The notes below the pieces were generated by a model that had not been told where the DNA came from, did not search any database, and was given only the letters and a program-made list of their open reading frames with translations. DNA of 64,000 nt from Lama guanicoe (lineage: Eukaryota): assembly GCA_013239625.1 (NCBI GenBank), contig MU055594.1, forward strand, positions 20,512,039 through 20,576,038, given 5' to 3'. The position numbers and the translations under genes were made by a program. This document shows positions 19,323 through 34,162 of the stretch, piece after piece (position 1 is the stretch's first letter; every line of letters starts with the position of its first letter).

Positions 19323-19577
19323 CTGTACCGGAGACAAAATCAAGCCGAAAACAAACACAGGCGTGTGAGGGGAGGGCTCTCTATCAGGCCGCTCTGTCTG
19401 CACGAAGTAAAAGCAGCCGGCTTTCTCACGGCTACCATCTGTCAAAAGGATGCAGTGCTTTTAAAAACACTTGGCACACGCAGCTCATCCTGGGGACTAG
19501 TTCGGTACTTTCCAGCAAATGCGGAACCAGAAGAAGGAGAAACCTGGAAGTATATAGTAATAAATGTACATAAAATG

Positions 19578-19666
19578 ATTTTTTTTTAATACAGATACTG
19601 GGGATTGAACCCAGGACCTCCTGCATGCTAAGTGTTCGCTCTACCACTGAGCTATACCCTCCACCC
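19578..19666 (-). mobile_element. tRNA-derived SINE (Vic-1-like, short form)
   Basis: tactggggattgaacccaggacctcctgcatgctaagtgttcgctctaccactgagctataccctcc. Confidence 0.9.
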
Positions 19667-19984
19667 TGTCAGAGGATGTTTTGAAAGCCAAACCCAAACC
19701 ACTCACAGTGATTCCTTTGTCGCTGCTAAAAACAAACGGAAGCAAATAATTTAGAGGCTCCCCAGACTTAGAAAGTGGTGACTTCACAAAATCTAGAAAA
19801 AAGTAAGCCATAGGTTAAAACTGCGGGGAGTTTATCGAACACTGTCGGGGTAAAGGGTGTCCCAGAGTTTAGCTATAGTGTCCATTATACCAACTGACGA
19901 AGTACCCAGCTGACCCTGCCCAGTGGAGGCATTCCTGAAGAACATCTAACTTCTCACTCTCTAAGATACAGTGCGTGTGGGGGA

Positions 19985-20090
19985 AGGAGGGAGGGGTAGA
20001 TAGCTCAGCGGTAGAACGCATGCCTAGCACTCACAAGGTCCTGGGTTCCATCCCCAGTACCTCCACTGACAATAAAATTCAAGAAATGAA
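19985..20090 (+). mobile_element. tRNA-derived SINE (Vic-1-like)
   Basis: gatagctcagcggtagaacgcatgcctagcactcacaaggtcctgggttccatccccagtacctcca. Confidence 0.88.
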
Positions 20091-21299
20091 ATTCTCTGCT
20101 CAACAAGCCCTTTTCTGATCTAGTATTCAGTCTCCTAAGTTGATGTGCACAGTTATAACGAAGACAACCACAACATTACAGTATATAAACAATAGCGGTC
20201 GTCTCCCAGGTATTACATGAAGGCACTAGCTCATGGAACATCTTTCCAAAGCATTCACATTCCAATTGCTCAGGTAAGGGGACAAAAAAACCAAAGAAAC
20301 AAAAAAACACACACACAGAAAATTTAGGCTATTTGCCCAATATCATCAAGGCATGTGGGTTGGGTTTTGAATCCAGTGTTCTATATTGTTATTGTGGCTC
20401 ATCTGCTCCTTGTAAACGCAGCATGGCTCTGCCGTCCCCAGACCTGATGAACAGAGGGGGAAATGCCAAAATCGTAAGCACCTGGGACTCACCCTCCGTG
20501 AGGTGAGGGTTTCCCTGAGTGTCACCCTTTAGTGTCTTTCCCTTTAAGATGCCTTCTCCGTGCAATGACGCATTGGCTTTGCCCACATTAATCCATGAGT
20601 GCATATATCACCTCACAGTAAGAGCTCTGGTGTTTTTTTATCAATAGGTGGATAAGTCTTCATGAGTCAATACTATGGCTTTGGATGAAGCCATACTTAC
20701 ATGCTCAGATACCAGAGTTAGTATAGTTAACAATGTCTTGAAAACATTTATTACTCCAACAACAACAACAACAACAAAATGGAGTCAAGTTCCCAAGTGA
20801 AGCTTAAGGGAATAAAAGAGAAGGATAAAGGAGTTTGTTGTGATGGTTAATTGAATTTTTTTGGTTTAACTAGAGGTTAGTCAGGAGGAAAAAAAAAAAC
20901 TTTTTTTGCTCCAATCCTTTGTTGGGGAAAATATTTATTAAATGAGCTATCAATTTTTGTCTAAGAAAGGAGCACTAAGAATTCCAGAAGTTTCCTTGTA
21001 AATGGAGGATTTTGTGGTTCCTCCGTGGAAGCCCTTCCTCTGCTGTGCAATTTTACTGAGACAGATGGTGTCTGGAGGACGGCGTGGACCTCCTGAACCA
21101 AACCCCTGCAAATGGTTTCAGAAAGGAAGTTCCTGCTTTCTTGTCAGCTGTAAAAGCAGAACACTACAAATTGAGACATTACTGTACTTCCCACACTGTT
21201 TTCCCTGGCAGTGCGAAATATACTTGAACCCGCTGCTTTCTGGTTTTCATAGCAATGTTTAGCCAGATACAGAGCTTTTAATTTCAAGCAAACAGATTC

Positions 21300-21300
<1 letters not shown>

Positions 21301-21332
<32 letters not shown>
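21301..21332. repeat. A32 homopolymer
   Basis: 32 consecutive A. Confidence 0.95.
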
Positions 21333-21335
<3 letters not shown>

Positions 21336-24300
21336 CTGTGGTTGATGTGGTAGATTCTTCCGAACACCAAAAGGCTTGTTAGTCCCTGAATCTTAATTTA
21401 GGTCAATTTAACGGAGGCTCACAGCATCTTGCATGACTGCGCTTTTTTTCTTGTACGTGGGACCTTTGCTTACATCTTTGTAGTGCCAGTGACAGTGCGG
21501 CTTTGGGCAAACCACTAACTGTCATGTTCGTTTCCTCATTGGTACAATGGAGATACTCACTCCGGGCCCTGGGGAATGGGGCTGCTTAACATTTTCTATA
21601 GAGTCGATTTATTTTTGGAAGTACCCCATCATTACAAATGCTCCATATACTGGGCACCAAAATTGAAAACTACATGCATTTCTGATGCAAACGCACAGCC
21701 TTTATAGAGTAATTACAGCGTTTAAAAGGCTTACGCTTAACAATAGCTCCTTCTTCCGTAACCCAGTATTTTATACTCTTTTTCAGCCACAAATTTTTTT
21801 CCCCAAAAAAAGGGAAAAACACAAAGAATGGATACAACGAGATTTTCCTTCAACTAAAATTGACTGGAAGCTAAATTTAAGGCCCACACATCAAGTTTCA
21901 TCTTGTTCTTTTACTATGTAAACATGGAGTCAACTCCCGGGAACCAGCCAGGGGTCGGCAAGGTTCCGGGCCACTGCCCGCTCCCATTGCAGAGCTGATC
22001 AATCTAGAGAAGGCAGAGACCCCAGCCTCTCAGCCTAGCACATGATCACAAGCCTCGGCAGGAGAAGGGAGGACCATTCTGAACTAGCCCACGAGTTTGC
22101 CGGACCTGGTCCCCACCCCACCATTGCCACCAGAGGGAAAAGAAAACCCTTGCGGAATAGTTCAGGAGTATTTCTTGGGCAGGCACTGTGCGTCCCTGTG
22201 TTTGCTGGACTGAAAACTGATGAGATTTTAAGACAAAAGAGTTTATCACCAAGAGAATGAAGGAACGCCAATGAAGCACAGGACTGGAAAGTGTTCTCTG
22301 CTGAGAAGAAAGTTTGGGGCAAAACTAACCAGTCCAGCTACAGGGAAAAGCAACAGAATGATTAAACTACACTGAGATGCCTGCCTCGGGGGCAGGAGGG
22401 AGACGAGACGTTACCGGACAGGTGAGCAGAGGGGACGTCAAAGGTCTTCACAAGGTTCCATTTCCTAAGTTGGATGGTGGGGAAATGGGTCTTCTTTTTA
22501 TTTTATTACTGTATTTGATATTTATTATTCCTTTTAAAACTATGCATATAATATATATATGACTCACTGATATGTGACATGTATGTATATATCCTTTATA
22601 TATATACATACTATTATGTGGGATATATAATTTTTTTAACTGTTTAATTTTACTGGGGAGGAACTTCCTGTAGAAAGGTTATTGATCAGTACAAGGTGGC
22701 CCAGCGAGTTAGTGGTCCCTCTGTTGTGGTTAATGGGGGATGTGGTATCGTAGAGGAGCATGATTATGGTCCTAGGACACAGCCATCTAGTCCATGTGTG
22801 AATGCAGTCCAGGTTGGCCATGATGTGTGTGTTTCCTGGCCTGTTATTACTGACCAAGAAGATGCTGGGTAAGTTTCTCTCTGGGGCTAGCAAGTGTTGT
22901 CCTTTCCTTTAAAACTACGGTCCCTTTAAAAAAAAAAAAGAAGAAGAAAGAAAAAAGGACGTTTCAGCAAGCTTTTTCTGTACAGGTTAAGGCTATATAT
23001 TTTCAGTTTCTGTTGGAACGTGACAGCAACCACGGACGACACAAGAGGCCCAGGTGCTACAGCCCCTGCAACCAGCAACTTAGAGAGGCCGTAACTAGAC
23101 GATCAAGTGGCTAAAAGATTTAGAAAAGCATCGTGTTTAAAAAAAAAAACAAACACAGATACCCTCAAAAATGAACGTTCCCACCCAATTATTAACCTCA
23201 GTGTGAAATGACAGTAAGTGAAGTAGGGAACAAATCTCTGCTTGCCAGGGCGCCCTGATCATCCGCCCGCCAGGGCTCTGAGAATGTTCGTCTAGAATGG
23301 ACACAGTCACTGTGCGGAACTAATCTGACTTGTTTAGCCTAACAGGATGCCAGGTGTCTGTTTTCTTAGGATGAAAAGCAACACAACCCTCAACTCAGGG
23401 AAATGCTGACTGATGGGGCAATGAGCCTAACTTTGCTCTCGTCGTGATGGCAGGTTCTGAAGCTCTGGGGAATGGCTGGGATTTCTAAAGAAGTCATTGA
23501 AGGAGCCAAGCCCTCTAAACCAGGGACTGTACTTGCCGGGAGCTGTGTCTGAGAAGGTGGCCCTGTGTCGAGGGAAATGACTTGTCACTTCCAAGGTGCA
23601 GGTAGTAGGAAGATTATGAACTTGGCAATCACAAGATACGGTTTCAAACTCCATGACTTGTTCGTTGGGCAAGTGACCTCTAAGATTTCAGTGTCCACAT
23701 GGGTAAAACGAAAATGCTACCTCTTCTCTCATAGGCTGGGTACAGAGATGTATGGGGTCAAACCAAAAAGCACCATGGTTCTCTTCCCTTGGCCCCCTCC
23801 ATTTTTGTGTGGACAAGAGTCACTGGGGCAAGGAATCTGAAAGGTGGGAGGAGTTCTGCATACACATTGGTTTTTGCACCAGGATTACAGGTGCTGAACA
23901 GTGGAGCCAGGCACCAGCATCCTAGCTTCACTAGTACGTGTCCGAAGGGTCACGACAGCACAAGAGGCATCATCCAAAGAAAGGCACATTGAAAGGACAA
24001 TGTTGCCCCTCTGTCACACGCAGGGCATCATGACAGCACCCCACTGGGTGAGCAGACACTGCCCTGATCCACCATGAAAAAAGCTCAAGAAAAAAGGCAT
24101 AAGGTGTGCAGCTGGGTTATCACAGAAGGCACGGTATTTTCCTGTCCGTTAAAAAACCCTGAATCAGATCTAACCTGGGCGATAACCCTCCTTTGAGGTT
24201 CATTTCTTTGAACGCTCACTGTCAAAGCCAGTATGCAAAAAAAAAGGATTCCTCCTCTTTTAATAAGAACTTGAGTTGACCTTTATAACCAGAGAAGGTA

Positions 24301-26004
24301 TTAAAGCTCTTGCCTTTTGGAGATTAATATCTGAAATGAGCACCATCATTAAGAACCCATATTAAAGCCTTCCCTGGAAGATGCATGAAGGAGAGTGATG
24401 AGAGGACAAAGGCCACCTGGAACCCACAACACAGCCCGCTGGACTTCACACTGTGCAACCACGCTGCGTACAGAATGGGTGCAGGGAAGAGATGGATGTG
24501 TTTATAGAAGCTTTTTGCTGGTACTGCATTCTTATCATTTAAAAGGTTCAAGTATTCCCACTGCATCTCCCGTACTTGTTAACGTAATGGCAGTTCTCAT
24601 TATTCTTCTAGAAAAAAAGAAGTGGAGGGACAAATAATGGGAGAACTCCCATGGAGGCAATTAATCCACAAACTCCTCCCAGGACAGACGACGCCACAGT
24701 TATCCCCGTGCTGGTTTCTACACACAGACACACACACACACATAGCAGTCTCCCCAGACGTCCATGTGGGAAACAGGACACATGAGCTCAAAACCACTTT
24801 CCTTCTGCCACCACCTTGACCCCCCATCCCAGACATGCTCTTCATCAGCATGTGCTGTGACCTCTGGCTTGCAAACTACAGACACAAGGGCAAAGATGGA
24901 CACAATGCATAAAACATAGGTCAAGTTTGGAAATCTGATGAAAAGCCTGGCTTGAGCATCCCATGACGTTCTTCCCTGTACAGCAGTCATGTCCTCAGAG
25001 ATGCCTTTGCTGACCACCTCCTGCCCAAGCCTCATATCTACTCTGATTATCTCCCAGAGCCTAGCACATAATGAAAGTACAAAGAGTATCTGTTAATGAA
25101 TGAATGAGAGCCTTTTTTGTCATCCTTCCCCTCTTGCCTAACCCTCCCCCCATTTATCATCCGTTAACTGAAGTTACATCTTCTGTAACTGAAGCCCCTG
25201 AGAACATGAGGGACCAGATGCATCACACCCTTGTCGCTTGGTCCTGCCAGATCCACAGTCTCTACGATAAGGAGAAGGCAGACCCACGGGTGGCCAATGT
25301 GGGGAACCTGGGCTTCTGGTGCACGAACCTAGCAGTTGTGCAAGAGCCCCTCCCTCTGCCGGCGTCCTCTTCCCATTGGTCCACCGTGTCCATCAGGGCC
25401 CAGAGCTCACCAGGCAGAGATGTCCCACCTCTCCCTGCGGCGAAACCCTTCTACCGCCGTCTGTCTGGCCTGATAACATACTAAATGCTCCTAAAAGCAA
25501 CCAACCCCCACGTCTGGGTGTGTTGTGGGAACTAGCATGTCACAGGATGGTTAAAACACAGTGTCTCCAGTGATCACTCCTCACGTCATCACGCAGGAAA
25601 CTGCATCCCAGCACCAGGAACTTGGTTTGCCCCAGGTTAAAAACTCTTTCCTTATTGAGGTGCAAAATGGAAGGAACTGCTTAGTTTTCATTTCAAACCC
25701 CTAAAGTCATTTCCAAAGCAGACTGAATCACGGTCTTGTTGAAGGCTCGGTGGGCAATCAGAGTAACCTCAGACCTCAGGAGCCACCAAAAAGCACCACG
25801 CAAAGGTCTCGTGGTTCATGGATGGACTGCTGACCGACGGCAAACTCTATCAAAGCAGGAGACAGTTTTCCAGATGGGAGACATAAATTTCACTGATGCA
25901 GTGAGGAAAACTAACCACCTTTTATTTCATCCCATAGGGGAAAACACACAAAAACCCACAAAGTCAAAAATGCCTCCTCCCTCCATGTCTTAGTCTGTGT
26001 TTGA

Positions 26005-27420
26005 AGGTGTTTGTTTATTCATTCGACAAAGATGGACTGAGCAACGCAGCAGTGAACAAGGCAAGATGAAACCCTTTCCTGGTGAAGGCTGTGTTCTGGT
26101 GCGGGATGCGGGAAGTAATCAAGTATTCCGTCTGTTAGACAGCGGGGAGGGCCAATGGCAGCAGGAGAGCCGGGGAAGGGGATGGAGTGGGCAGGGCTGC
26201 AATTTTAGATACAGGGCCCCCTTCCCCATGTCTAAGAGAAGGCTCCACTGAGCTAACGTGGGAATCAAGCCCTAACGGGGGTAAGAGAGTAAGCCCAGAG
26301 AGGGAACAGCACGTGCGGAGGAGGCAGGATGCTGGTGGAGATAAGGAGGAGCAGGGGGGCTACGGTTCATCTGGAGCAAGTGAGCACTGAGGACACATGG
26401 TATGCGTCCGAGCTTGGAGACGAGGGCCGGGAGGGGAGTATAGATGCACTGGGTTTTCCAGCTGCTCCTTTGTGTGCCAGTGGCAAGTCACCGGGGAATT
26501 TGACTTTTCAATGACAGGAATGACACGATCTGACTTACACTGAACAGGATCACTCTGATCGTTGTGTCAAGAATAAACTAAAAGGGGCACAGGCAGAAGT
26601 GGAACAATCAGTTAAGAGGCCATGGCAACGATCCAGGAGGGAGGTACCAGTAGCTTGGGTCAGGGTGGTGGTTGTGAAAATGAGAAGCAATGGTCGGCTT
26701 CTGCACCTATGTTGAAAGTAGAGGCGGGAGGGTATAGAGCTCAGTGGTAGAATGTATGCTTAGCATGCACGAGGTCCTGGGTTCAAGCCCTAGTACCTCC
26801 ACTAAAAAAAATAAATGAATAAATAAACCTAATTACCTCTTCTCCCTCACCCCAAAAAAAATTTAAAAAAAGGAGAGCTGATGGGATTTGCTAATGCATG
26901 GAACACAGGGTGAGAAAAAAGGAAAGGAGTTGAGGACGGTGCCAAGGTTTTGCTCTGAGCAGTGGCAAGCCCCGAGGACCCATCTTCCACATTGGGTAAT
27001 GGATGTGGATGGATGGTTTGGGTTTCAGGTTTATGTAGCTACAGGGGGAGGAGCCGGCTGGACACCTGGGTCTGTCAGGCAGGTGGGAGGCTATCTGTGT
27101 GTCAAGGTCAGGTACAAGATCCAGGCTGGACAGGGAATTAGCAGCAGACAGGTGGTACTCAAAGCCATGGGTAACCCGGGGATGGAGACCGCGCAGGTAG
27201 AAGAGAGGTGCAAGTCCTCACCCCGGGCTCTCCACTACTTAGAGGTCGGGTCGGAGAGGAGGAACTAGCCAGGGAGCTGGAGAAGAGACAGAAGGAGCAG
27301 GTGGGAAGAGAACCAAGACAGGGTGGTGTCCGGGAGGCCAAGGGAAAGTGTTTCCAGAAGAAGGGAATCTGGGCTGCCAATGAGTCAAGTAGAGGAAAAC
27401 CCAGAACCGAACAACACAGT
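26005..27420 (-). mobile_element. L2 LINE remnant with nested SINE
   Basis: Starts with the L2 3'-end signature in reverse (ttattcattcgacaaa...actgagc), followed by purine-rich L2 body motifs (aggatcactctg, atgttgaaagtagag). Confidence 0.75.
26722..26870 (+). mobile_element. tRNA-derived SINE (Vic-1-like) inserted in L2
   Basis: gggagggtatagagctcagtggtagaatgtatgcttagcatgcacgaggtcctgggttcaagcc; tail aaataaacctaattacctc. Confidence 0.9.
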
Positions 27421-28879
27421 TAGAACTGTGTTGTCAGACTATGTAGAAAAGAGGCAAGACTAGGGCTAACACACTGGCATGTTTCACTGATTCTAAGACA
27501 TCTGAATGCCTTTTTAATCAACGCCTTTCCATAGCTCGAATCCAGTGTTTTTTTCCCCTTGTGGTGTATACATAATAAAAGACCCATCCCACAATCAGTG
27601 GTGTCTTAGATTTGATGAACTATCATAAGAATCGTTATTTTTTAAACTTGTACCCTTGAAGCCACCTACTTTTTACAACTTGCCATATTACCAGCAACCT
27701 AATGTGTCAAATTCTGTATGTACACGGCAGCGGTCACAACCAATTCCTTGTGAAGAATGACCAACAGAATTCTAGAAATTCCTCCTCCTCTGCAAAATCT
27801 GCTTACATAACACCTGACCGGGTGGATTCAAGGACACTAACTTGCAAGAACTTTTTTTTTCCCTACTTGTATTTTAGCCCTACCAGGGGGAGAATGCTGA
27901 TGTGTTTTTCAACATCGCAAACAGCTTAAATTCAAAAGCTGTTAGTTAGATAAATTAGAGAATAAAATATACATTAAAAAAAAAATACCTGCCCTCTAAA
28001 GCCGAGAAGAAGCAGCCCGCAGTGGGTACGCCTGGGAACAACAGCAGCCTCCCATGGGCAAAGGCCACGTCTCCCGAGACTTGGTGCACAAGATAATGCT
28101 TTTTAGGCCATCGAAATAAGAGGCTTTTCTCCTGCGATGGGTCTGCGGGCTTTATAACCCTCAAACATCCTAGAGGTGGAACCGAACGGTGCTGTCTACT
28201 GGAAATAGCATTACTGGAAGCAAAGGTGGAAAAGCCGGGGGGGGGGGGTAAGGGGTGGAAAACAGCCCGCCTGTCCCTGCCTGTTCTCTGTAAAGTGACA
28301 GAAGCCCCACGGGGCAGAGCAAGAACCCAGCAGCCTCTTAAAAGGAATCATCTGCTCCCTTCAGCCCAGCTTCCTGGTGTTAACATTTCAAGGCTACTTC
28401 CCCTAGGAAATTCGGGCTGACAGACAGGATGACTGTCTGGAATTTTTAGTCCAGGAGGCTTCTGGCAAAGAAATGGAAGGTTTCTTTGGTTGCAGCGGCG
28501 GCTGCTGCCGTCTGGGGCTGAGAAAACCCCCCAGTGCAACAGATGTGAGTTCTGATTAGCAGGACTCCATCACCTCTGACTTATTTGAAACAGCCTTAAT
28601 TGTTTTCAAACAGCCCTCAGCGCCTTCAGCCATTGCGTATCTGGCTTTAGAAGTTTTCCATTTCAAGCATTCCAAGAAAAAAGTGAAAAAGGAGGAAATC
28701 AGAGGGAATTCTACGGAGGAAAACTCACCATTTGATGACAGTGTTGTCGTTGTTTTATTTCAGAACAAGTTGGGATTTGCTAAGGGAAATAAATTTTTCT
28801 TGATGGAGCATGATTACAAAAAAAAAAAATCAACCATGGACACCTAGAAATTTCTAACACTGAAAAATTAAAATCCAGA

Positions 28880-29120
28880 TGTTTATAAATCCAGATGCTA
28901 AGAATCAAGAGGCAGGGTCTAGAGTCAGACTGGTGTCTGAATTTAAAACCCGGCCCTGCCTCTTTGTAGCTGTGTGCCCTTGGGCAAGTGACTCTCTGTA
29001 CTTGTTTTCCCACCTGCAAAACGGTGATGATTGTGGCCAACCTCATGGGGTTCAGAAAATTAAGTAAATATTTATAAAAATGCTTAGAACAGCCTACAGC
29101 ATTCAATAAGTATGAGATTA
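28880..29120 (+). mobile_element. MIR SINE
   Basis: tagagtcagactgg...tagctgtgtgcccttgggcaagtgact...gttttcccacctgcaaaacgg...tgcttagaacagcct. Confidence 0.8.
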
Positions 29121-30024
29121 AGTCTTTGTTGAAATTAAGTAGGCAATGAAAACTTAATGGTAGCAGAAATCTTTCGCATGAGGTTAGAAAATTATATTAG
29201 TAAGTCATCATCTTCTGTCCCCCCCAGATCATCTATGGGCAGTAGCAGGCTCCGAATAACCTCACTCTAGGAAAAAAATTAAGTGGAGAAGCACTTACTA
29301 CTGAATTCCTAACGCACTTCACTTGCTCTTTATTCCTGAACACTGCATATGGTGGTGAAAAAATGAAATGTTTTCTTAAGCCATCCCTGAAACCTGATTG
29401 GAGAGTGTATTGCTATTGTTCAAATACAACAAGGACATAGTTTCCAGTTACTCATCACCTGTCCCTAATTAACCTTCGCAACTTTGGGGAAATATCTGTA
29501 CTAGAAACACAATCACAGCTCCACTCCTACAATTAGACTGCACCTTGCTGCTTCCCCTGGAAGGAGGATGAAGTCTGCAGAGTTGTGAATCTGGGAGATG
29601 CATTTGCTTCCTACGCCCCAGTAAAGACCAGTTCTCCCACACTGGATCAATCATAGATGAGGAAACACAACTGGGGAAAAAAGGAAACATTTTTTCTCAA
29701 CCTGTTGTTGGGATGCGTAAGGACCCAGAACTGAGAACAGGGTTGTTACTGAGTAAAATCTAAAGACAACAGAGATCAGAGGGGATGTGTTTCTGCTTGT
29801 TTGCCAGGTAAGGTGGGATGATGTCATAGTGGATAGGACGGAAGAAATAAAAAATATCTTACCAGAAACTCAAGGTCTAAAATGTAGCTCAGTGCAAGCA
29901 AGCACAGTGCCGGAACCTTTTAAGTAAGTGCACTAAGCAAATTATGTCCTGTTTCTCAAGCAGGATTGCTTTCCCTAAGAACAGGCTTCACGTACAGGTT
30001 AGAACATCAAAGTTACGCAAATAA

Positions 30025-30428
30025 CATGGATAGACCCAGAGATGATCAGACTAAGTGAAGTAAGTCAGATAGAGAAAGACAAACATCATGATGTCACTTA
30101 TATGTGGAATCTGAAAAAATGATGCAAATGAATCTATTTACAAAACAGAAACAGATTCGCAGACATAGAAAACAAACTTATGGTTACCAAGGAAGAAAGG
30201 AAGGACGAGGGAGGAATTAGGAGTTTGGGATTAGCAGATAGTAACTACTATATATAAAACAGATACACAACGAGGTCCTACTGTATAGCACAGGCAACTA
30301 TGTTCAATATCTTATAATAAACTATAATGGAAAAGAATCTGAAAAGAATATATATTTACATATAACTGAATCACTATGCTGTACAACTGGAACTAACACA
30401 ACATTGTAAATCAACTACAACTGTTTTA
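30025..30428 (+). mobile_element. L1 3' end (ORF2 C-terminus + 3' UTR) with 16-bp TSD
   Basis: TSD aaagttacgcaaataa (30009-30024) / aaagttatgcaaataa (30429-30444). Confidence 0.92.
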
Positions 30429-31123
30429 AAAGTTATGCAAATAAGAGGTTCAACCACTAAGCCAGCTGGTCTGTAATTCAGTCTTTAGGTTTCAGGCCTG
30501 AGATATGCAAAGGAAGGTTGCGGGTTGTTTTCAACTTCACCTTTCAGGTTTGGCATCAGTGAAGAATAGGATTTTAGAATGGAAGGTTAGAGATATCTGA
30601 ATCCAAGACCTTCACTGGACAGGTGAGCAGAACCAGGCCCCGCAAGGCCCCCTTGGCACAGCCTCCCTCTCCCAGCCAATCGCGCCTCCTCCTGAGGTTC
30701 CCGGTTTCCCCTGTGCCCAGGGTCTTTCTCTTCCCCTCGTTCTCCCAGGCTTCACCATCAGCTCAGCAGGTGCTCCTCATATTTGCAAGAGCAGGTAATG
30801 TGACCAAAGGTTCTTCCTTCCTAGATCGATTAGAACCAGACTCCACGGGCCACATTTTCTATTCTAGCTGGTTCTGTACTGGTCCATCAGACCTCAAGGC
30901 ATTTTACGGCCAAAGTTCCCAGCACAGATTTTTCCCTGCAGCCATTTCTCCCGGCCCCTATAACTCATTACATGTGACCCTTAATGGATTTCTACTTGGG
31001 TTGAAATAGATAGAAATCTGATCCTCCTGGCCACATAAGGTCTCATCTTGTGTTCCCACCACTAGGATTCTGTGAAAGCAGGGTAGCAGTTTTGTGGAAT
31101 TTGACTTGAAAACCATAAATCCA

Positions 31124-31381
31124 GGGAGAGAGGGGAGAGATGAATCGGGAGTTTGGGATTAACAGATACACACTACTATATATAAAGTAGGTAAACAACA
31201 AGGACCTATTATATAGAACAGGGAACTACATTCAATATCTTGTACTAGCCTATAATGGAAAAGAATCTGAAAAAGAATGTATATCTGTATAGGTATATGT
31301 ATAATTGAATCACTTTGCTGCACACATGAAACTAACATAACATTGTAAATCAACTACACTTCAATTAAAAAAAAAAAAAAG
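31124..31381 (+). mobile_element. L1 3' UTR with poly(A)
   Basis: gggagtttgggattaacagatacacactactatatataaa...cattgtaaatcaactacacttcaattaaaaaaaa. Confidence 0.9.
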
Positions 31382-32405
31382 ACAAAACCCCTAAGTTCAT
31401 GGAAGGCAGAGAGGGATGAGTGGAGCCAAATAAAGAGGTTCTGGTTGGCAAGGAAGATGAGGACCCCTGGCCTGGCTTCAGAGTGCCAGGGATCTAGATG
31501 GCATTCAGGAACACAGCACCGTCTGCTTAAGGTGAGCAAAGCTAAGTGAGGTCTTACGTGACCTCCTATACAGAGCACCCACATTTAGGTGATTTTAAAC
31601 CCACCTTCATCCTCATGAACAACTCAGTGTGAAATGGATAAGGACCAGAGAAAGATCTTATTATACAGGATTCTTTGCTGCCCAGAACTGAGCGCAGTCA
31701 GATCAACAAGGTATTGTTTCCAGAGGCCTCTCTGAGCACCTGGAATGGTTTTTATTAAACAGAACCTCTCTTTGTGATGGGATTTTAAACTGGTTGTACC
31801 TTTGAGAACAGCAATTTGGAAAGAAGAGAATTTCCTTTTTTTAAAAAAAAAAAAACCACCTTAACTATAAACATCCCAATACAAAATCTTGCGGGGAAAA
31901 AGTTAAACTACTGGATGAGACCTGAATGAAACAGCTGTGATTTAGCTGGAAAAGTCTATTGCTGAAGTCCTGCTTTCACGGAAGGCAGGGTCAGGTTTTG
32001 TTTGGCACTTCCATTCTTTCTACAAAAGAGAATATTGTTTCAAGGACAAAGGCATAGGAGTTTACAAGGTTACAGTGGCCCTGACTATGCCTAAGACCGT
32101 TGTGTGAAGTTGCTTTCTGAGGCTGGACCAGATTTACTTCGACAGCTCCCTGTGGTCTCAAGAAATCTGAAAACTGCACTGCAAGGGAATACAGCTGACC
32201 GTAACCTAATCCATAAATGCAGCTACTGACTGGAATGGCTTCTTTAATAAATGGAATAATGAGAAGAGCGTTCCAAATACTCACATATTTGAGCAAAATG
32301 TTCGCGCTACCATAATTTTCTTAGTCATTTCCCTAAAACTGGCCCTTTGATTATTTCCAGTTTCTATTTATTATACGTAATGCTGAATTAAAAGTTCAAG
32401 ATCTT

Positions 32406-32785
32406 CAGGGGAGGGAAGGATAAATTAGGAGCTTCAGATTAGCAGGTAAACACTACTACATATAAAATAAATAAACAAAGACCTACTGTATAGCACAGTG
32501 AACTACATTCAACATCTTGAGGCAACCTATAATGGAAAAGAATCTGAAAAAATGTGTGTGTATGTGTATGTAAATGTGTGTGTGTGTATATCTATATATA
32601 TATGGATAACTGAATTACTAAGTTATACATCTGAAACTAACACAACATTGTAAATCAACTATACTTCAAAAAAAAAAAATCCCAAAGCAAATATATGGTT
32701 ACTATCAGGAGACAGTATAAGTAGACCAGTAAATGGTCTGAAGAATGGAATAAAAGTACAAGGTTTCTCAAAAAAAAAAAAAAAA
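32406..32785 (+). mobile_element. L1 3' UTR + poly(A) + 90-bp transduced sequence + second poly(A), all inside one TSD
   Basis: TSD aaaagttcaagatctt (32390-32405) / aaaaattcaagatctt (32781-32796); A12 at 32668-32679; AATAAA at 32749-32754; A16 at 32770-32785. Confidence 0.85.
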
Positions 32786-33473
32786 TTCAAGATCTTTGTG
32801 CTTAAATATTTTGTGTGTGTTTCTGGTTTTTATCTTTCTGGTAGATTCACAAAAATAGAACTGCTGGGCTGAAAGGTATGAAGATTTTTAAGGCTCAATA
32901 CAAAAGGCCAAACCACTTTTCAGGAAGGTAAGTCTCAGCCTTCATCTTTAAGGAGAAAGATCCCAAATGGAATTATCAAAACTTCGGGCTGAAATTTCAT
33001 TCAATATTAAGGAAAGGGAAGTTACCGCCACAGTCTGAAAACTGCAGCCTTCAACTCAAACTTAGCTGCTAAGACAAATTCTAGAAGTTAGTTTTTGCTT
33101 TCAAAAGAGGAAAAACTGAGATTTCCCAGCCTGGACCCACCACACACACTGACCACTAAGGAAAAGATACAGAACCCAGCATCAGACGACCATCTGTAAA
33201 CTAAGGTTCAGGTGTCTGAACTCCAAGAGACCTTCCTATCTTCCTGATAGAAATGGGGTCCTAAAAATGTAAGAGGGGAAAAGTACATGTGAGAAAAGGG
33301 CTAGGAATCTAAAAGCAAGGTTCAAATTCAAAAAGACAAACTTAAGGCAAGCTGTATTTATTTTTGCCTCCCTCTTATTTTCTTAGCAGACTCGTGGGAG
33401 GAAGTGAGGACTCCAAAGTCGGGAGACACTGAGTCAGTCCCATCTGTCCTGAACCAAAGACTACCCTGGGTCA

Positions 33474-33820
33474 CATGACATCACTTATATGTGGAATCTA
33501 AAGTGACACAAATGAACGTACTTACAAAACAGAAACAGACTCACAGACGTAGAAAACAAACTTACGGTTACCAAAGTGGAAATGGGGGGATAAATTGGGA
33601 GTTTGGGATTAGCAGACACGAACTACTATACGTAAAACAGAAAAACAATAAGGTCCTACTGTAGAGCCCAGGGAACTATATTCACTATCTTATAATAGCT
33701 TATAATGAAAAAGGATATGAAAAGGAACGTATATATATGCATAATGGAATCACTAAGCTGTACACCAGAAACTAACGCAATATTGTAAACTGACTATACT
33801 GCAATTGAAAAAAAAAAAAA
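33474..33820 (+). mobile_element. L1 3' end with perfect 18-bp TSD, inserted into a MIR-like element
   Basis: aaagactaccctgggtca at 33456-33473 and 33818-33835. Confidence 0.93.
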
Positions 33821-34162
33821 GACTACCCTGGGTCAGCGCAGCTAAGCCTCTCTGAACTTGATTCCCTCGCTTGTTAAATGAGAAGGTTGAACAAAGCCCC
33901 TAGAGGTCATTCGCAGGTCTCTGATCCCACAACACTCTCCTTTAAACATGCCAGGAGAACCGGGGGCAGAGGGGTGATTCTCCCTGAACGTAGGGCGTCG
34001 AAGGCTGACCACCTCATCTTTCCTAACGCAACTAGATCAGCCAGCATTTGGTGCACAGAAGAGATTCCAGAAACTCTGCATGTTCCTTTCCTTCTGCCAA
34101 CAGGGACTAGGGAGGGAGAGGCTGGGGCATCGGGAAGTGAGGAGAAAAGACGGAAGGCTCAC

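Follow-up and report, generated by a model that had tools for sequence, protein, structure and literature searches.

The window analyzed here is a stretch of 64,000 nt of the Lama guanicoe assembly GCA_013239625.1 (contig MU055594.1, positions 20,512,039 to 20,576,038), and all coordinates refer to it unless stated otherwise. Its minus strand carries the gene TNFRSF21 (DR6): the encoded protein presents TNFR and Death domains and its best PDB match is TNFRSF21. A composite insert made of the 3' end of an L1 element, an A-run, 90 bp of additional sequence (hereafter the tag) and a second A-run is located within intron 3 of this gene, which bears out the location proposed in the original prediction. 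The features of the locus are the following, those of the insert being read from the sequence:

19323..34162, minus strand: intron 3 of the host gene TNFRSF21, placed by domains, PDB match and exon mapping
32308..32389, minus strand: putative left part of an older, decayed L1-like fragment (profile positions 140-218)
32390..32405, plus strand: 5' target-site duplication (TSD), preceded by TT, which forms the endonuclease consensus TT/AAAA (32388-32393)
32406..32667, plus strand: 5'-truncated L1 3' UTR fragment of 262 bp, ending without an AATAAA of its own and antisense to TNFRSF21
32668..32679, plus strand: first A-run (A12)
32680..32769, plus strand: the tag (90 bp), whose counterpart is G000:C2625:1938906-1938995 (minus strand) in an intron of CSTPP1
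32749..32754, plus strand: the tag's poly(A) signal, AATAAA, shared with the counterpart
32770..32785, plus strand: second A-run (A16), whose final five A are shared with the 3' TSD
32781..32796, plus strand: 3' TSD
32797..32868, minus strand: putative right part of the older, decayed L1-like fragment (reaching profile position 297)

The entire insert is bracketed by two 16-bp copies of one TSD that are identical at 15/16 positions, and the L1 3' end and the extra sequence are therefore enclosed by a single duplication. As a control for chance, agreement at 15 or more positions was observed in only 2 of 2,000,000 random pairs of 16-mers drawn from the window. The insertion lies at a TT/AAAA site and ends with a poly(A) tail (A16); an excerpt of PMC13141329 gives TT/AAAA as the L1 endonuclease motif. 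This succession of TSD, L1 3' UTR, A12, tag, AATAAA and second A-run had been proposed previously, and every one of its coordinates was confirmed in the sequence. The window contains at least 10 further pieces of the same L1 3' UTR (276-61231), all on the plus strand and antisense to TNFRSF21. Antisense placement of L1 pieces within a gene is the usual orientation bias.

To approximate an outgroup empty site, the flanks of the insert were compared to a profile derived from an old copy of a repeat (73 hits in 748 kb of DNA, the test region being masked). When joined at one TSD, they align as a single piece over profile positions 140-297 with a score of 14.9 bits; taken separately, they score 2.5 and 5.5 bits against the same repeat profile and in unchanged order. 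This alignment has a spacing discrepancy of about 15 bases and therefore provides modest support that all the DNA between the TSDs was inserted, and modest support that the insert interrupts an older antisense L1-like fragment (32308-32868). An earlier flank-joining test against one repeat copy was weak (z 3.5), and the right flank used as a genome query returned only its own locus.

A genome search with the L1 fragment yielded 5,740 candidates, the best 40 of which were scored; among the matches listed, 39 other places are near-full-length and present 77-81% identity to the fragment. We take these sequences to be L1 from the general look of the 3' UTR, the A-tails and the copy number. The 3' ends of 29 of these 39 sisters were retrieved and compared after excluding microsatellite columns. 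The mean p-distance is 0.16 between the window copy and the sisters and 0.15 between sisters, and no single sister is conspicuously close to it, the largest overlap being 6 of its 22 private sites. The sister ends comprise 11 AATAAA, 3 ATTAAA, 13 other ends and 2 pure A-runs. The AATAAA/ATTAAA that had been noted as missing from this copy is indeed absent, which is not unusual considering the other ends (13/29) and the pure A-runs (2/29). Only the pure A-run is uncommon, and such an end fits a source element that needed a downstream signal. The 90 bp had also been described as following no other L1 copy, which held both in the window, where the best chance match elsewhere has an E-value of 2.1, and among the sisters, none of which (0/29) carries the tag. 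This places the tag outside the end of the L1 subfamily. Directly 3' of one L1 match (L029), the A-tail is followed by a repeat of internal L1 3' UTR sequence, an arrangement which suggests a tandem or rearranged L1 end.

Across the 2.05-Gb assembly, only one other match to the tag was found, at G000:C2625:1938910-1938995 on the minus strand (E 3.7e-16), and we refer to it as the donor. The alignment is ungapped, with 71/86 identical positions, 14 transitions and 1 transversion, and two of the differing sites present the CA/TG pattern of CpG decay. This identity, the 14:1 ratio of transitions to transversions and the CpG-type sites indicate true homology rather than a chance match. The limits of the match are the base that follows A12 and a CA located 15-16 nt past the common AATAAA. 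Beyond this CA, the donor is T-rich and has no A-run: the next 40 bases are 45% T, a value reached by 8% of nearby 40-nt windows. Since the donor presents no A-run after the first A, the A16 was not templated there and represents a tail added to an RNA. The extra sequence in TNFRSF21 maps to this second locus, and its end coincides with what looks like a genuine poly(A) site there.

The donor is found on the sense strand of CSTPP1 (C11orf49), in a 63-kb intron that separates the exons at 1986030-1985899 and 1922680-1922588. This locus lies beyond PACSIN3 and ARFGAP2, and the search for a PDB match to the CSTPP1 exon returned none. The last part of a long CSTPP1 isoform (minus strand, 1886065-1885763; L007:6490-7065) overlaps the region of a plus-strand ARFGAP2 exon. 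A match to Ribosomal L29e in a CSTPP1 intron (L010:2102-2551, plus strand) is probably a processed pseudogene. The donor tag is preceded, at a distance of about 100 bp, by a second AATAAA in the terminal part of an L2-like repeat.

The start of the tag lies 6 bases past TT/AAGA, and the 1,090 bp of donor sequence examined contain only one further endonuclease-like motif (background of 4.3 per kb). Over about 1 kb of the donor, 11 A-rich clusters were counted, and the tag's start also coincides with one of them; of the six bases at which the presumed source TSD would begin, two differ from the A-run. Because the junction is also an A-rich cluster, microhomology is possible, and a former L1 insertion site is favoured rather than proven. 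From this donor junction, A12 can be read as the genomic tail of a source L1 followed by the A-rich start of the source TSD.

The tag had been expected to mark the source locus of the L1. It does lead to a specific site in CSTPP1, but no source element survives there. Upstream of the donor, we detected no A-run, TSD or L1; instead, the 3' end of an old repeat, which we presume to be L2, is present, and the upstream 400 bp are single-copy in the genome. The donor is therefore not the immediate 3' flank of a same-strand L1, and it constitutes a single tag locus without an adjoining L1, as in transductions termed parentless. Within the 190 kb scanned, the closest L1 3' ends on the donor's strand lie 50 kb upstream and 27 kb downstream, each at a p-distance of 0.245, farther than any of the 29 sisters. 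Spliced read-through from the copy 50 kb upstream was considered and rejected: this L1 is too distant (p 0.245) and has its own AATAAA, and the AG before the tag is not preceded by a pyrimidine tract. One old L1 in sense orientation to CSTPP1 (L019:49-3331, minus strand) retains remnants of the endonuclease, the reverse transcriptase and the 3' UTR in about 3.3 kb; this is shorter than an intact ORF2 span, and the copy is probably internally deleted.

Donor contigs from two DNA runs of other organism codes match the insert only from 32680 onward and continue without interruption, which indicates that the donor lacks an L1 tail there as well. No filled donor allele, i.e., one with the L1 present, was seen in this genome or in the contigs of these two runs. 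Sibling insertions were searched with the tag, with the donor tag plus 300 bp downstream and with a 30-letter degenerate pattern allowing 3 mismatches (its reversed-pattern control gave 0 matches), and these queries returned only the window and the donor. The anticipated family of sibling insertions was thus not recovered at the sensitivity of these genome searches, which score the best candidates only and may miss a more diverged sibling. The genome search proposed for the tag revealed the L1-free donor and, apart from the window insert itself, no locus where the tag adjoins an L1 poly(A).

We then considered whether the poly(A) site of the donor is used today. Each of the two RNA runs (X15 and X16, from two studies) yielded a single contig that carries donor alleles across the tag; these contigs stop at positions equivalent to 32755 and 32772, i.e., 1 nt past AATAAA and 2 nt past CA. 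DNA contigs continue for more than 800 bases on either side of the donor tag. No contig of the four runs corresponded to the window's own copy of the tag, a gap that carries no weight as to the presence of the insert in relatives. By rough arithmetic, the chance of a 1-kb contig ending in such a 25-nt window is about 2-3%. These ends were judged through the window tag, which is 82% similar to the donor, and because the contigs have neither strand nor true ends and DNA is possible in RNA libraries, they constitute only a weak hint that the intronic CSTPP1 poly(A) site (C2625:1938906-1938995; AATAAA, CA and T-rich tract) is in use. A functional signal would fit an L1 transcript that read into the flank as well as a CSTPP1 RNA that ended there, and it gives the latter a weak hint of plausibility.

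The divergence between tag and donor is 0.17 (95% CI 0.10-0.27), or 0.13 without the two CpG-type sites. It is similar to the divergence between the L1 fragment and its sisters (0.16), which points to similar ages. The two values agree with a single event, although two events would also fit values this noisy. At a neutral rate of around 2e-9 per site per year, the event would be roughly 30-45 million years old, a soft estimate.

Our results suggest that the insert is probably an old parentless L1 3' transduction, whose source L1 was never fixed or was lost. The original prediction of 3' transduction is retained as the best explanation, based on the tag being absent from the sisters, the single donor, the poly(A) signal and the endonuclease-like junction; its source L1 and its siblings were not found. 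A full-length L1 without a good poly(A) signal would have landed in the CSTPP1 intron in sense orientation, and its RNA would have read through about 90 nt of flanking sequence before being polyadenylated at the flanking AATAAA. ORF2p would then have nicked TT/AAAA in intron 3 of TNFRSF21, and target-primed reverse transcription (TPRT) would have proceeded from the new tail and halted once about 260 nt of L1 had been copied. The daughter in TNFRSF21 would have become fixed, and the source allele would have been lost through drift or through selection against sense intronic L1s, leaving the empty allele. Stronger selection against sense-oriented intronic LINEs is reported in an excerpt of PMC3088655. 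The insert itself would today be neutral, decaying DNA. The absence of a source L1 at the donor, the absence of any sibling, the 2/6 mismatches at the start of the presumed source TSD and the A-rich junction all stand against this interpretation.

Alternatively, the tag could be the 3' end of a CSTPP1 transcript polyadenylated within the intron, with no L1 ever present at the donor. We consider this unlikely, whether the RNA entered the A-tail of a pre-existing L1 as a retrocopy made in trans, with its TSD hidden in the A-runs, or was joined to L1 RNA in one event by template switching or ligation. The donor is sense to CSTPP1, possesses a full poly(A) signal and has no L1, and the X15 and X16 RNA contigs end near its poly(A) site while DNA contigs continue; a host RNA with such a 3' end may thus exist, as this explanation requires. 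Chimeras of L1 with other RNAs formed by template switch or ligation are also described in an excerpt of 10.1101/2025.02.02.635956, but the chimeras in this excerpt carry the foreign RNA 5' of the L1, not 3'. A host RNA would moreover require two rare things, namely that a minor intronic isoform was retroposed and that it landed exactly in an L1 tail. The junction falls on an endonuclease-like motif, of which there are two against 11 A-rich clusters, and a working poly(A) site is equally required by transduction. It is quite unlikely that the donor never held an L1, that a CSTPP1 RNA 3' end was fused behind an L1 tail, in the opposite order to the usual chimera, and that this intronic poly(A) site has stayed in use over tens of millions of years.

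The empty donor would also be expected if the source L1 had been fixed and later excised cleanly through recombination between its TSDs. Clean excision of an L1 is far rarer than the loss of an unfixed allele, and the donor contigs of the two other organism codes are also empty, making this scenario highly improbable. Finally, the tag might be decayed L2 tail DNA, resident at TNFRSF21 or captured as filler, with C2625 being only the best of many old paralogues. The tag does weakly resemble 20 local L2-like 3' ends (mean z about 1; the L2 label is presumed), yet their best score is 37 and the donor reaches 112. This score gap and the lack of a profile hit on either copy of the tag largely refute an L2 paralogue. 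The donor match is also ungapped, is dominated by transitions and has limits that coincide exactly with A12 and the poly(A) cleavage site, and the tag is located inside the TSD with flanks that join without it. We regard this last explanation as almost certainly wrong.

L1 3' transduction is an ordinary, well-described by-product of L1 activity, and the process exemplified here is well known. No publication on the TNFRSF21 insert was found in the literature searched, which consisted mostly of open-access texts. It would be a clean fossil of a source L1, in which a fixed daughter is left and the source itself has vanished. One dated event ties intron 3 of TNFRSF21 to an intron of CSTPP1. The insert may be useful as a marker in phylogeny, and it draws attention to an intronic poly(A) site of CSTPP1 that is possibly live. 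If a fusion with host RNA were true, some parentless transductions would be host-RNA captures and not footprints of lost L1s. No function is expected of the insert, since the moved DNA consists of 90 non-coding bases antisense to TNFRSF21.

Human partnered L1 3' transduction, in work attributed to Moran 1999, Goodier 2000, Pickeral 2000 and Szak 2003, reportedly involves a transcript that passes a weak L1 poly(A) signal, ends at an AATAAA in the flank and is then inserted by TPRT. The TNFRSF21 insert would have formed in the same way; unlike these cases, it has no surviving source element or sibling family. It also resembles the L1/cellular-RNA chimeras in the excerpt of 10.1101/2025.02.02.635956 in that L1 and non-L1 sequences are found in the same orientation within one TSD, but its foreign part is 3', behind the L1 tail. 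The parentless transductions of dogs are the most similar: in the parts of PMC7980453, PMC13141329 and PMC13756887 that we cite, they combine an L1 3' end, a tail, a unique tag and a second tail within one TSD, with a single L1-free tag locus. Parentless cases are the large majority there (17/18 in PMC7980453 and 24/27 in PMC13141329, both from excerpts), in keeping with a parentless origin of the TNFRSF21 insert, and one was resolved when the parent was found in another assembly (excerpt of PMC13756887). These proportions refer to recent, dimorphic inserts (a 95% identity filter was applied in the excerpt of PMC13141329), whose parents may still segregate, and not to fixed inserts as old as the one described here. 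The TNFRSF21 insert is presumably fixed and 17% diverged from its donor, a divergence that makes its parent most likely extinct. The TNFRSF21 insert differs from the dog examples only in its age.
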